NCBI GenBank assembly: GCA_944389495.1
Contig: CALXMN010000001.1
Coordinates: forward strand, 78,012 to 142,011
From: an uncultured Alphaproteobacteria bacterium
GTDB lineage: Bacteria > Pseudomonadota > Alphaproteobacteria > Rs-D84
DNA length: 64,000 nucleotides
Direction of reading: 5' to 3'
The notes under the pieces were generated by a model. It worked only from the letters and a program-made list of their open reading frames with translations, had not been told where the DNA came from and made no database searches. Below, piece after piece: positions 7,949 to 30,348 of the stretch (the stretch's first letter is position 1; each line of letters opens with the position of its first letter). A program made the position numbers and the translations under genes.

Positions 7949-8098
7949 ATGGCAACGCCAAAAAGTAAAACAAGCAAAGCACGTTCGGCCCAGCGTCGTT
8001 CACACGATGGTTTGTCTGTAATGCCGTGCACGGTATGCAAGACCTGTGGCGAAAAGAAACGGCCGCATCACGTATGCCCGGCGTGTGGCGCAAAATAA
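7949..8098 (+). CDS. rpmF: 50S ribosomal protein L32
   Basis: 49-aa ORF MATPKSKTSKARSAQRRSHDGLS...CPACGAK, translated by hand because it is below the ORF-track cutoff. It has the typical L32 Cys cluster and sits immediately upstream of plsX, as is widely conserved. Confidence 0.8.
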   Translation: MATPKSKTSKARSAQRRSHDGLSVMPCTVCKTCGEKKRPHHVCPACGAK

Positions 8099-8172
8099 TA
8101 AATAAGAAATAAAAAAATGGCAGAATTTGGCGCGTATGTAATATTGTGCCATTCTGCTTTTTTAATGTTATT

Positions 8173-9237
8173 ATGTCAACAGAAAAAAAGATCATAGCAA
8201 TTGATGCGATGGGCGGGGATAAAGGCCCGAATGCTGTATTGGGGGGAATGAATCAATTTCTGTACCAAAATGGCGAAACGGGTGTGTTCTTTCGTCTGTT
8301 TGGGCCAAAGAAACAATTAACTGCGTTGTTGGCCAAATATCCGCGCGTCGCCCGCAATTGCGAGGTTATTGATGCACCCGGTGTGGTCAAGGGAACGGAC
8401 AAAGTGCGTGATGTTATTCGGCACGCCCAGGATACGTCAATGTATATGGCCATTCGTGATGTTCGTGAAGGTAACGCATCTGCGATTATCAGTGCGGGTA
8501 ACACGGGAATTTTAATGTCTTTATCAAAGTTGGCGTTAAAGACCGTTGACGGTATTTCTCGTCCGGCGATAACGACTATGTTGCCATCGGGGGGCGGTGA
8601 TTCACGTGTGGTTGTATTGGATTTGGGTGCAAACGTTCATTGTGACGAGCGGGATTTGTTCGATTTTTCCATCCTGGGCAGCGTTTATGCCGAAGTTATC
8701 GGTAAAATGCCGCGGCCCAAGGTTGGGGTCTTGAATATTGGATCCGAAGAAACCAAAGGTAACGAGGTTTTACAAAAACTGAATAAAATCTTGATGGAAA
8801 ATAAAGATAAATTGCCATATGAATATATCGGTTTTGTCGAAGGAAATGATATTGGCGGTGGTAATGTCCAGGTGGTTGTGACCGATGGTTTTACCGGTAA
8901 TATCGTTTTGAAAACTGTTGAAGGTACCGCCAAGTTGATCAAGCGCGTGTTGGTTGACAATCTGAAAAAATCAGTGTTGGCAATTATTGGTGCGTTTTTC
9001 TTGGTGCACGTTTTTAAACGTTTAAAGAATAAAATTGACCCACGTTCTTATGCGGGCGCAACGTTTTTGGGACTGCGTGGTTTTGCGGTAAAAACCCACG
9101 GTAACAGCGATGCGTTGGCATTTGCAAATTCTATTAAATATGCATCGGATTTAACGGCGGCGAACTTGAATGACGTGATTGCGTCGCGTGCGGCATCTGT
9201 GTCCAAGATTCGTGATGAAATCACAAACCAAGAATAA
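8173..9237 (+). CDS. plsX: Phosphate acyltransferase PlsX
   Basis: The N-terminus at an ATG reads MSTEKKIIAIDAMGGD, the PlsX signature. The ORF-track start at 8146 is a GTG that lies inside a hairpin with a T-run. Typical rpmF-plsX linkage. Confidence 0.85.
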   Translation: MSTEKKIIAIDAMGGDKGPNAVLGGMNQFLYQNGETGVFFRLFGPKKQLTALLAKYPRVARNCEVIDAPGVVKGTDKVRDVIRHAQDTSMYMAIRDVREGNASAIISAGNTGILMSLSKLALKTVDGISRPAITTMLPSGGGDSRVVVLDLGANVHCDERDLFDFSILGSVYAEVIGKMPRPKVGVLNIGSEETKGNEVLQKLNKILMENKDKLPYEYIGFVEGNDIGGGNVQVVVTDGFTGNIVLKTVEGTAKLIKRVLVDNLKKSVLAIIGAFFLVHVFKRLKNKIDPRSYAGATFLGLRGFAVKTHGNSDALAFANSIKYASDLTAANLNDVIASRAASVSKIRDEITNQE

Positions 9238-9258: not shown

Positions 9259-9282
9259 CATCCCGCATTGCGGGATTTTTTA
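9259..9282 (+). terminator. Rho-independent terminator after plsX
   Basis: TCCCGCATTGCGGGA hairpin followed by TTTTTT. Confidence 0.6.
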
Positions 9283-9355
9283 TTGGGAATATGTACGTAT
9301 TGATATTGGTAATGTTTTTTTAGACCCTGGGGATATAAAAATGGGGGGAAATAAA

Positions 9356-12070
9356 ATGCGACCAAGAACATCAATACTGACAATTATTCTTTTATATGCT
9401 GTATCACCGGTATTTGCAGCCGATGCGCCAGACTTTAATACATTTTATACATTGTATAAAATGGCGATGGCACAAAACGATATAACAATCACTGCAGATA
9501 TGGTATCAACACGTCTTATCAGTGTACCCGGGGCCGCGCAAACCGTTATAAATGGTGGCGGTTTTGGATTTGATGGTGGTGCGCAAAATGGTTTTACTGT
9601 TTCGAACGGATATACATTTAATATTGAAAACGGTGGGGATTTTGATGCTTCGTCCCGGCCCGCAATAATCAGTAAATCGTATAACAATTTTATCAGTCCC
9701 CAGGGCGCAGTTATTGCCAACCTTGGTGGCCAGGTTACGGTAAATAATGTTGCGTTTTCAGAAAATTCATCCACATATGGTGGCGGTGTATTATATCAGA
9801 ATAATTCTGGCACAATAAACGTTTCTGATTCTGTTTTTGATTCAAATAATACCACGCGTGGTGATGGCGGGGTTTTGTATAACGAGTATGAAACAATCGC
9901 CACATTTAATAATGTTGTATTCCAGAATAATTCCGCACGTGATTATGGTGGTGTAATATTTAATGATGGCACATTAAATATTTCGGACAGTGTGTTCTTG
10001 GATAACACCGCGTCCAGTGGGGCAGGGCTTTATAATTCTAATGAAATGATTTTAAATAATGTCAGTTTCACAGACAACAAAGGTACATCTGATGCGGGGG
10101 CAATTTATACGACCGGTGCGATGAATTTGAACAACGGTGTATTTGAAAATAATTCTGGCGCGACGGGCGGTGCGATTGGTAATTATGGGATAACAGGTGA
10201 CACACTTTATTCGACGGTTGCAAATTCAACCTTTATAAATAACAGTGCCGAATATGGCGGTGCAATTTATAATTGGGATGATATTTATGTTATCGACAGT
10301 GTATTTGAAAATAATAGTGCCACAGATGGGGGCGGTGCAGTTTTTAATCTTGGGGAATTGTATTTAATTGCGCGTGATAAAGACTTATTGTTTTCTGGTA
10401 ATACCGCATCAGGCATATCAAACGCAATTCACTCAACGGGCGTTATTGGTATAAATGCCGCCGCGGGTCGAACCGTTAACTTTCAAGATTCTATTACAGG
10501 CAATGGTGAAATATTAATAAACAGATTCTATATTTACGACGCACAAAATGTTCCGACCGGCGGTAATATATTACTGGGGGCGGATATGTTTGGGTTTAAA
10601 GGGAATGTCACGATGTATGATGGTACACTAAGCATTGGCGAAGGGGGACGATTTTTTAATTCTGAAAATTTACAGATTTTGGGCGGTACCCTGAACTTGG
10701 GAACAAATATAATAACGGCCCAAACGGTTACGTTTGGTGCGGATTCGACATTGCGTCTTGATATAAATGATAAAGATGCCTATGGTGCAATCGTTGCAGA
10801 TGCGTTTAATATATCATCTGGGGCGCAATTGGATGCAATATTGGCGCCTTCTGCGATGGGTAATCAAGATACATTACGTGTGCATTTGTTGCGCGGAAAC
10901 GCGCCTATAAATGATGCGTTTATTCCGACAATAAATAATAACATATATATGTTTACTCAATTGGGCAACGGTTGGTACGAAATTGCACAACTAAGTAATT
11001 ATGCCGATGTTATTGACGGTGCGGGTGGAACCCAGAATAATATGAATACCGCCACCGCGTGGCAAAATACGCCGGACGAATCAAATCTTATTGGGCGTGC
11101 CGTATATAATCGAATGTATGAATTGTTACAGACAGATGCGTATGAATACATCCACGCGTTAAGTGCATTGGCGCCTTCGCCGGCACCGTTGTTACAGATG
11201 TTGGCAACGTCATATACATCGCGTTTGGGAACGCTGTTAATGGATACGGACGATGCGACCGCATATTCTGTTGGACGTGGAAAAATTTGGGCATCTGGTA
11301 TTGGTGGTGGTGGCCATCTTGGGGGGAATGCGCATTATGCAGATTTTGATCGCTATGGCTTTGGTGGCGCGGTCGGTACAGAATATTCGTATGCTGATTT
11401 TACATTGGGGGCATCGTATATGTATCAATACGATCGTTTAAAAAGTTGGTCACGAACGCTTCACACGCCCACGCACGGTGGTGGAATTTATATTCGGTAT
11501 GATACGCCATATAATCTTGTTTTGCGTGGAACGGGAATGATGTTTTATACTGATGTGCACGAAACCAAAAATGCGGCCGGCTTTGGCATAGATAATAATT
11601 CAGATGTGTACACATACAGTGGACTTGCCGATATAGGGTATCGTATTTCGGAACTGGATTGGAATTTTACACCACGTATTGGTGCACAATACACAATTGT
11701 ACATCGTGATAATTCAATCGATTCAGTCGGTCAAGAAATTGCGTCGCGCGATTTACACTTTTTAACGGCGTACACTGGTTTAACGGTTGCGCGTTATAAT
11801 TTTATGATGGGCGGAATTACCATTAATCCAGAATTCATAATTGGTGCGTCGTATGATTTACGCAGTGATGCGGATATGTATAACGTATCTGTGAATGATA
11901 TATCATACATTATATCTGGTCGTGTGTTACCGCGTTGGGCATTAAATTCTGAATTAAAATTGCGTGCAGAATTTAATCCTGTATCTGAATTAGAATTTGG
12001 GCTGGGGGTTGATTTGCGCCAAGATTACATAAATTATATGGCGCATTTACGTGGTACTTTGCGTTTTTAA
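9356..12070 (+). CDS. Autotransporter with polymorphic-membrane-protein (PMP) type repeats and a C-terminal beta-barrel translocator
   Basis: The signal peptide is MRPRTSILTIILLYAVSPVFAADAP and a GGGGG ribosome-binding site precedes it. At least eight tandem units pair FxxN with GG(A/V)(I/L/V)(Y/F)N (FSEN..GGVLYQN, FDSN..GGVLYNE, FQNN..GGVIFND, FENN..GGAIGNY, FINN..GGAIYNW, FENN..GGAVFNL). The C-terminal roughly 300 aa is rich in alternating aromatic beta-strands and ends in ...GTLRF. Confidence 0.7.
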   Translation: MRPRTSILTIILLYAVSPVFAADAPDFNTFYTLYKMAMAQNDITITADMVSTRLISVPGAAQTVINGGGFGFDGGAQNGFTVSNGYTFNIENGGDFDASSRPAIISKSYNNFISPQGAVIANLGGQVTVNNVAFSENSSTYGGGVLYQNNSGTINVSDSVFDSNNTTRGDGGVLYNEYETIATFNNVVFQNNSARDYGGVIFNDGTLNISDSVFLDNTASSGAGLYNSNEMILNNVSFTDNKGTSDAGAIYTTGAMNLNNGVFENNSGATGGAIGNYGITGDTLYSTVANSTFINNSAEYGGAIYNWDDIYVIDSVFENNSATDGGGAVFNLGELYLIARDKDLLFSGNTASGISNAIHSTGVIGINAAAGRTVNFQDSITGNGEILINRFYIYDAQNVPTGGNILLGADMFGFKGNVTMYDGTLSIGEGGRFFNSENLQILGGTLNLGTNIITAQTVTFGADSTLRLDINDKDAYGAIVADAFNISSGAQLDAILAPSAMGNQDTLRVHLLRGNAPINDAFIPTINNNIYMFTQLGNGWYEIAQLSNYADVIDGAGGTQNNMNTATAWQNTPDESNLIGRAVYNRMYELLQTDAYEYIHALSALAPSPAPLLQMLATSYTSRLGTLLMDTDDATAYSVGRGKIWASGIGGGGHLGGNAHYADFDRYGFGGAVGTEYSYADFTLGASYMYQYDRLKSWSRTLHTPTHGGGIYIRYDTPYNLVLRGTGMMFYTDVHETKNAAGFGIDNNSDVYTYSGLADIGYRISELDWNFTPRIGAQYTIVHRDNSIDSVGQEIASRDLHFLTAYTGLTVARYNFMMGGITINPEFIIGASYDLRSDADMYNVSVNDISYIISGRVLPRWALNSELKLRAEFNPVSELEFGLGVDLRQDYINYMAHLRGTLRF

Positions 12071-12100
12071 TTATTTACAAAGACGGCAAATAAAATAAAT

Positions 12101-12122
12101 CACCGGCAATTGCTTGCCGGTG
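12101..12122 (-). terminator. Hairpin CACCGGCAATTGCTTGCCGGTG; terminator for the minus-strand gene 12193-12528
   Basis: Perfect 9-bp stem followed by a T-rich run on the minus strand. Confidence 0.45.
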
Positions 12123-12192
12123 ATTTCTCCCCTCCTTCTGGTTTCCCAGAAACTGTATATTGCCCGATGGACCGCACGCCCGGGCGGCGTAA

Positions 12193-29118: not shown

Positions 29119-30057
29119 ATGGGAAGCAGATTAATAGGATATGGTTCTTACCTGCCCGAACGGATTGTAACAAATTTTGATTTGGAAAAAATGGTTGACA
29201 CGTCCGACGAATGGATTGTTCAGCGTACGGGTATGCGTGAACGGCATTTTGCGCGTGATGACGAAACGGTTGTTGATATGGCAGCGGCGGCAGCATCGCG
29301 TGCGTTGGAAAATGCGGGCATTACGATAAACGACATAGATATGGTAATTGTTGCAACAACATCTGCGGAATTGGATTTTCCATCCGTCGGGGTCCAGGTT
29401 TTGGGGCGTTTGGGTGCAACGAACAATGCGCCGGCATTTGATGTGCGTGGCGCGTGTACGGGGTATATTTATGCGTTGCACTGTGCGCGTGCGTTTTTTT
29501 CGGCGGGCATTCACAAGCGCATAATGGTTATCGGTGCGGAAAAAATGTCGCGTTTCATAGATTGGTCTGATCGCAGTACCGCCGTGTTGTTTGGCGATGG
29601 GGCGGGCGCATTGATATTTGAACACTCCACGTCCAGTTATTCGGGTATTATTGATACGGTTGTGATGTCTGATGGAACGGAAATGGGGATGTTATACGGC
29701 ACGCCTGATCATCATATTATAATGAATGGGCCGGAAACATATAAAAAGGCTGTAACATTGATGCCTGCAGCGGCCAGTTATATTATGGAACACGCGGGAA
29801 TCACGGCGGATAATGTTGATTGGATTGTCCCGCACCAGGCGAATTTGCGCATTATTCAAAGTGGGGCACAACGTTTGGGATTCCCGCTTGAAAAAATATT
29901 GGTTACGGTTGACAAGCACGCGAATACCAGTGGTGCGTCCGGCGTACTTGCATTATCGTATGCATTTGATAATAATATTATAAAACGTGGTCAACTTGTT
30001 CTGTATCCTGCGTTTGGCAGTGGCCTGACCTGGGGTGCGGCATTAATCAGGGTGTAA
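29119..30057 (+). CDS. fabH: 3-oxoacyl-ACP synthase III
   Basis: Full-length FabH with active-site Cys (ACTGYIYAL), His (VPHQANLRI) and Asn (ANTSGAS). Confidence 0.9.
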   Translation: MGSRLIGYGSYLPERIVTNFDLEKMVDTSDEWIVQRTGMRERHFARDDETVVDMAAAAASRALENAGITINDIDMVIVATTSAELDFPSVGVQVLGRLGATNNAPAFDVRGACTGYIYALHCARAFFSAGIHKRIMVIGAEKMSRFIDWSDRSTAVLFGDGAGALIFEHSTSSYSGIIDTVVMSDGTEMGMLYGTPDHHIIMNGPETYKKAVTLMPAAASYIMEHAGITADNVDWIVPHQANLRIIQSGAQRLGFPLEKILVTVDKHANTSGASGVLALSYAFDNNIIKRGQLVLYPAFGSGLTWGAALIRV

Positions 30058-30060
30058 AAA

Positions 30061-30348
30061 ATGGCAACAATAACCAGAAGTGATTTTGCAAATCGTTTAC
30101 GTGAACGTTTCGGTTTAACAACCGCGGATGCGTTCAAGTTGGTTGATATAGTATTCGAAGAAATTCGTGAATCTCTTATTCACGGGGAAGAGGTTAAGTT
30201 TGCCGGCTTTGGCAGTTTTAAGATTCTTACCAAATCCCAGCGTATGGGGCGTAATCCGAAAACCGGGGCGCCGGCGATAATATCGGCCCGTCGTGTCGCG
30301 TCTTTTCGCCCCAGCAGCGAATTCAGAAAGCGGGTTGCAAAAAAGTAA
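30061..30348 (+). CDS. ihfA: Integration host factor alpha subunit (IHF/HU family)
   Basis: 95-aa HU/IHF fold with GFGSF and RNPKTG motifs. It follows fabH, as in alphaproteobacteria. Confidence 0.75.
   Translation: MATITRSDFANRLRERFGLTTADAFKLVDIVFEEIRESLIHGEEVKFAGFGSFKILTKSQRMGRNPKTGAPAIISARRVASFRPSSEFRKRVAKK

Follow-up and report, generated by a model that had tools for sequence, protein, structure and literature searches.

A Predicted Type Va Autotransporter with PMP Repeats in Gut Candidatus Enterousia

Introduction

The polymorphic membrane proteins (Pmps) of chlamydiae mediate adhesion, and this activity depends on the FxxN and GGA motifs of their repeats (PMC2997323, PMC4287181). The characteristic spacing of these motifs comprises a GGA[ILV]-x(14,18)-FxxN core and a GGA that follows FxxN after 4–5 residues (PMC11166332). 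[quoted passage not shown] PMP-repeat type Va autotransporters are a known type of protein, and here we describe a further member from Candidatus Enterousia. As in PmpA–I of C. trachomatis and Pmp21 of C. pneumoniae, paired FxxN and GGA(I/L/V) motifs build a beta-helix passenger in the new protein, preceded by a putative signal peptide and followed by a type Va barrel at the C-terminus. Unlike these proteins, it comes from an alphaproteobacterium.

The host, the uncultured Candidatus Enterousia (Alphaproteobacteria, order Rs-D84), lives in the animal gut and has a genome of less than 1 Mb. This lineage has been described as a gut inhabitant with a reduced genome that possibly depends on partner organisms (PMC12306168). 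Enterousia have no TCA cycle and do not respire, lack several glycolytic steps as well as standard transporters, and have been proposed to rely on partners (PMC12306168). The complete 64 kb stretch of DNA that was analyzed is referred to as the window.

Results

An open reading frame on the plus strand of the window (9356..12070), complete with its stop codon, was confirmed; it codes for a 904-residue protein that is predicted to be a PMP-repeat type Va autotransporter. We call this gene pmp; its domain coordinates below refer to the same strand. A longer frame starting from TTG at 9179 crosses the stop codon of plsX (9237) and a terminator-like hairpin located directly 3′ of this stop by pattern scan and from the sequence (ATCCCGCATTGCGGGAT followed by a T-run; 9260..9276, plus strand). 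ATG 9356, on the other hand, corresponds to a nearly invariant Met1 in an alignment of 27 orthologues, and a Shine–Dalgarno-like GGGGGA (9344..9349, plus strand) can be read six bases 5′ of this codon. With this alignment and ribosome-binding site, we could dismiss the possibility that pmp is not a real gene or has been assigned a wrong start. The hairpin at 9260..9276 suggests that the autotransporter gene has a transcript of its own. Between the convergent stop codons of pmp and an ORF of 111 amino acids, the pattern scan identified a 13-bp palindromic hairpin (12097..12126, no strand assigned; its T-run was scored on the minus strand), which is likely a terminator. With terminator-like hairpins on either side, pmp is probably monocistronic and a transcription unit of its own.

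The N-terminus of the protein, judged by eye, begins with positive charge, continues with a hydrophobic core, and has a VFA/AD junction. It looks like a Sec-type signal peptide (residues 1–21, MRPRTSILTIILLYAVSPVFA, 9356..9418) with predicted cleavage before ADAP; in the AlphaFold2 (AF2) model, residues 1–19 have pLDDT values below 50. Residues 22–133 (9419..9754) contain an N-terminal cap with a helix at 27–36 and the first, less regular rungs of a beta-helix, as seen from AF2 secondary structure. D23, D26, F27, F30, Y31, and Y34 in this segment are invariant among the orthologues.

The adjoining repeat region (residues 134–345, 9755..10390) is made of eight consecutive rungs of 24–30 residues each with the pattern FxxN-x(4-6)-GG[AV][ILV][YF]N, followed by a degenerate ninth unit. 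No other part of the protein is as well conserved (mean column identity 0.62). The GGx[ILVA] motif occurs 10 times against 0.93 expected, a count that none of 2000 shuffled sequences reached, and FxxN occurs 10 times against 4.2 expected, which 16 of 2000 shuffles reached. FxxN-x(4-6)-GG is found seven times, and a relaxed pattern, x(12-23), fits eight rungs. The strict GGA[ILV]-x(14,18)-FxxN core of chlamydial Pmps fits only twice. We count the paired-motif spacing as that of a Pmp. The gaps from FxxN to GG (4–6 residues) and from GG to FxxN (12–18 residues) lie within Pmp ranges (PMC11166332). The protein matched the family models PF02415 (Chlam_PMP; 55.3 bits, E = 2.7e-15, cut-off 20.6) and TIGR01376 (40.5 bits, cut-off 15), and all 28 of 28 orthologues matched PF02415. 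The protein therefore belongs to the broad PMP-repeat family described by these two models. The sequence-only reading had proposed PMP repeats and had named the absence of GGA/FxxN spacing as grounds for giving them up; the repeats are confirmed by the rung count and by both models, and the rung spacing is present as in chlamydial Pmps.

The C-terminal part of the passenger (residues 346–545, 10391..10990; from the alignment and AF2) is irregular. It includes the degenerate ninth rung, the invariant residues F376, D378, I380, G382, and G384, of which D378 is placed one rung past the last FxxN, and a long antiparallel strand pair (436–447 with 452–470) in the AF2 model. An irregular beta-helix segment of about 200 residues between repeats and barrel is shared with chlamydial Pmps, and it lies where these have their 'middle region', yet the corresponding domain PF07548 was matched neither by the window protein (E ≤ 1) nor by any of the 28 orthologues (E ≤ 0.01). 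The Pmp middle domain has a conserved Asp at 'Rung 0', of which D378 is a candidate counterpart. A helical linker (residues 546–641, 10991..11278; from the alignment and AF2) carries the motif GGTQNNxNTAxAWQ (557–570), which is invariant in the orthologues, served as the scan pattern, and is also present in relatives outside the clade. Helix 612–628 of the model is taken as the helix inside the barrel pore. The remaining residues (642–904, 11279..12067) form the predicted autotransporter beta-barrel, which ends with LRGTLRF.

The AF2 model (pLDDT 90.8, pTM 0.73) contains a beta-helix at 22–545, helices at 549–628, and a barrel at 642–903, although AF2 can over-predict beta-solenoids in repeat proteins, as a preprint points out (bioRxiv 10.1101/2024.10.30.621056). 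Modeling of the passenger as a beta-helix, suggested from the letters of the sequence, gave the anticipated fold. Structure comparison of the model matched the barrel to those of EspP, NalP, EstA, Hbp, BrkA, and AIDA-I. The predicted barrel has 12 strands and an alpha-helix in its pore, as expected for type Va, and the terminal F904 is invariant in 28 sequences and provides the C-terminal aromatic residue of a BAM signal. The autotransporter beta-domain model PF03797, in contrast, found no match in the window protein at E ≤ 1 and matched only 3 of 28 orthologues (best E = 4.8e-23). With PF03797 missing both the window protein and 25 of 28 orthologues, the barrel is divergent at the sequence level. 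Hence, the earlier assignment of an autotransporter barrel with a terminal Phe holds for the structure model and for F904, but not for a direct PF03797 match. Homology is nevertheless supported by way of intermediates, because relatives with matches to the window protein (E = 1e-43) do score on PF03797: the L034 protein is 28% identical over residues 422–894 (E = 1e-43) and matches PF03797 with 136 bits, within a range of 108–136 bits for relatives outside the clade. A profile of the orthologue alignment searched against all PDB chains returned a single, marginal, and irrelevant match (MITSUBA-1, E = 0.0024).

Among relatives with a named source, those closest in the barrel half come from gut Alphaproteobacteria, and those closest in the repeats from Victivallaceae and Methanobrevibacter. 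The former are PMP-repeat autotransporters (L034–L039, from 'Rhodospirillaceae' RUG769, Proteobacteria bacterium CAG:495, and others) that are 26–30% identical over the C-terminal half and share the GGTQNNxNTA linker motif and the barrel. They score on PF03797 (108–136 bits), and PF02415 was matched in L037. They differ by their far greater length (1264–1944 residues), by an extended signal peptide region in some (MKYSKSALGLL...), by PMP repeats that are weaker or undetected, and by a different gene neighborhood. Non-chlamydial PF02415 proteins from Methanobrevibacter, Victivallaceae, Gastranaerophilales, Phycisphaerae, and Trichomonas resemble the repeat region (30–42% identity over 15–37% of the query), but have other anchoring domains and no autotransporter domain. 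To our knowledge, type V secretion is not usable by archaea or eukaryotes. Classical type Va autotransporters (the barrels of NalP, EspP, Hbp, BrkA, and AIDA-I and the passengers of Vag8 and pertactin) are only 8–17% identical in sequence to the window protein, which differs from them by its lack of a PF03797 score, by PMP-type rung chemistry, and by the absence of a protease, esterase, or other globular functional domain. Chlamydial Pmps differ in having 9–25 rungs (PMC10715098) instead of eight; the window protein has additional helices (549–605) ahead of the pore helix in the AF2 model.

In the window, rpmF (7949..8098) and plsX (8146..9237) are separated from fabH (29119..30057) and ihfA (30061..30348), with a distance of 19.9 kb between plsX and fabH. 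The sequence-only reading described this geometry correctly, but took the intervening DNA as an inserted block headed by the autotransporter gene. Comparison of loci from 33 species-level genomes does not bear out an insertion. The order pmp, 111-aa ORF, mraZ is kept in 28 of these, 21 of which also have plsX upstream, and loci L012 and L030 do without the block altogether (plsX-pmp-ORF-mraZ-tRNA-Arg(CCT)-fabH). The additional 15.6 kb of the window (13.4–28.9 kb) consists of core genes that are conserved but located elsewhere in sister genomes, including sodB, cvpA, peptidases, a radical SAM enzyme, a MltB-like transglycosylase, and an OlsB/OlsA-like pair. The site just upstream of pmp is a rearrangement breakpoint, and the DNA of the "20 kb block" is made up of rearranged core genes. 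The conserved 111-aa ORF had no match in Pfam, NCBIfam, or PDB sequence searches, and is unlikely to be a known RNA gene because an Rfam scan of the window found three tRNAs only and nothing between pmp and mraZ.

The gene had also been judged by eye to be more AT-rich than rpoBC. This is true for its GC content (0.411 versus 0.457 and 0.466 for rpoB and rpoC), but not as a sign of foreign origin: pmp is not an outlier among the 46 window genes (z = −1.1), and its GC3 tracks that of rpoC across genomes (r = 0.94; locus GC ranging from 0.36 to 0.47), staying a few points below rpoC in every genome compared. Its GC3 in the window (0.336) is the third lowest of 46, about the same as that of the housekeeping gene proS (0.334). 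The codon-usage distance of pmp (0.063) is among the smallest of the window genes, by a measure that favors long genes. From the gene-by-gene values, we ruled out that pmp is a compositional island.

Full-length orthologues were found in 33 species-level genomes that belong to this alphaproteobacterial lineage, with a nearly constant length of 878–927 residues and one locus per sampled genome. No second copy occurs in the 64 kb window or in the approximately 20 kb flanks of the 33 loci, whereas chlamydiae have 9–21 pmp paralogues. Identity between species is 47–64% for pmp, compared to 90–98% for rpoB/C, 85–92% for plsX, and 79–84% for a Pom-like outer membrane protein. Within the species, pmp is 99–100% identical, unlike the strain-variable Pmps of chlamydiae. 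Nonsynonymous divergence (dN) is 0.28 for pmp and 0.01–0.06 for its neighbors. We rely on this dN comparison only because dS (about 0.7–2.7) is at or near saturation, a limit that extends to the dN/dS of about 0.1–0.2. The divergence is spread along the whole protein and is highest in the barrel (column identity 0.47, versus 0.62 in the repeats). Neither this pattern nor dN/dS demonstrates diversifying selection on a binding surface. On the basis of these sequence comparisons, we conclude that pmp belongs to the core genes of Candidatus Enterousia, that it is old, passed on vertically, and evolves fast, and that it is not a recent import from chlamydiae.

Discussion

The protein is probably a classical type Va autotransporter with a PMP beta-helix, encoded by a vertically inherited core gene and most likely acting as an adhesin. 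Horizontal acquisition of an adhesin gene, whether the donor was chlamydial or not, with the gene placed first in an inserted 20 kb block and reflecting an intracellular or amoeba-associated lifestyle, is very unlikely. The low GC and GC3 of pmp, the wide plsX–fabH gap with a breakpoint just upstream of pmp, and another outer membrane protein encoded in the window that matches PF17251 ('Protochlamydia outer membrane protein') would fit such a transfer. They are outweighed by the presence of orthologues in 33 species-level genomes, 28 of which retain the same downstream neighbors, by the correlation of GC3 with rpoC and the equally low GC3 of proS, and by the core-gene content of the block. The chlamydial connection drawn from the sequence alone is contradicted by the mostly non-chlamydial membership of PF02415 (PMC11166332), by the absence of PF07548, and by the gut alphaproteobacterial autotransporters as nearest relatives outside the clade; the proposed lifestyle finds no pointer to amoebae in a lineage of gut bacteria. 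As a recent event, horizontal acquisition is already largely refuted, while pmp might have been transferred long ago, when the lineage's ancestor lived.

Two further readings concern the function of the passenger. It is unlikely that the passenger is a surface-displayed enzyme acting on glycans, such as a lyase, hydrolase, or depolymerase of host mucin or partner capsule. Any long right-handed beta-helix will match such folds, sequence identity to these enzymes is only 8–15%, no enzyme family model was matched, and two passengers of autotransporters, Vag8 and pertactin, give matches of about equal quality. The invariant positions, too, are mostly rung residues with a structural role (G, F, N, Y). 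The other reading is a structural protein of the outer membrane or of a surface coat, which a bacterium with a reduced envelope would keep in order to hold its envelope intact or protected, and not to bind a specific target. This would agree with a core gene at one locus per sampled genome, with the nearly constant length and near-invariance within the species, and with fast divergence over the whole protein including the barrel, which fits relaxed constraint on an exposed coat. We consider this explanation highly improbable since adhesion is the function of those PMP-type autotransporters that have been investigated (PMC2997323, PMC4287181), although computationally nothing separates the two readings.

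For the adhesin, we propose an order of export events that follows from the anatomy of the protein and from what is established about type Va secretion. The Sec signal peptide would bring the precursor to the periplasm, where the BAM machinery would insert the C-terminal 12-stranded barrel with its aromatic last residue into the outer membrane. The linker helix would fill the pore, and the passenger of about 520 residues would be threaded outward and fold into a right-handed beta-helix, beginning at its C-terminal end. The eight PMP-type rungs would form the regular part of this helix, with Phe and Asn of FxxN and the GGA(I/L/V) turn buried as in models of chlamydial Pmps. By analogy to these proteins, the most likely role is that of a surface adhesin that would join a metabolically dependent bacterium to host surfaces or partner cells. 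A more tentative possibility is that this single fast-diverging protein is the main attachment device of Enterousia, with their reduced genomes and possible partner dependence, and that divergence between species combined with near-identity within a species tracks host or partner specificity. If so, a second lineage with reduced genomes would have kept, independently, the rung design by which chlamydiae grip host cells.

These findings do not overturn current understanding. A predicted 904-residue surface protein that is present in every sampled species of a lineage with genomes below 1 Mb, and that outpaces its neighbors in divergence, appears as an obvious candidate for host or partner attachment, and could provide a handle for enrichment, labeling, or partner finding. 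Matches to 'Chlam_PMP' outside chlamydiae should not be taken for chlamydial ancestry. Since PF03797 misses the barrel in most orthologues, annotation pipelines will under-call this protein as an autotransporter.

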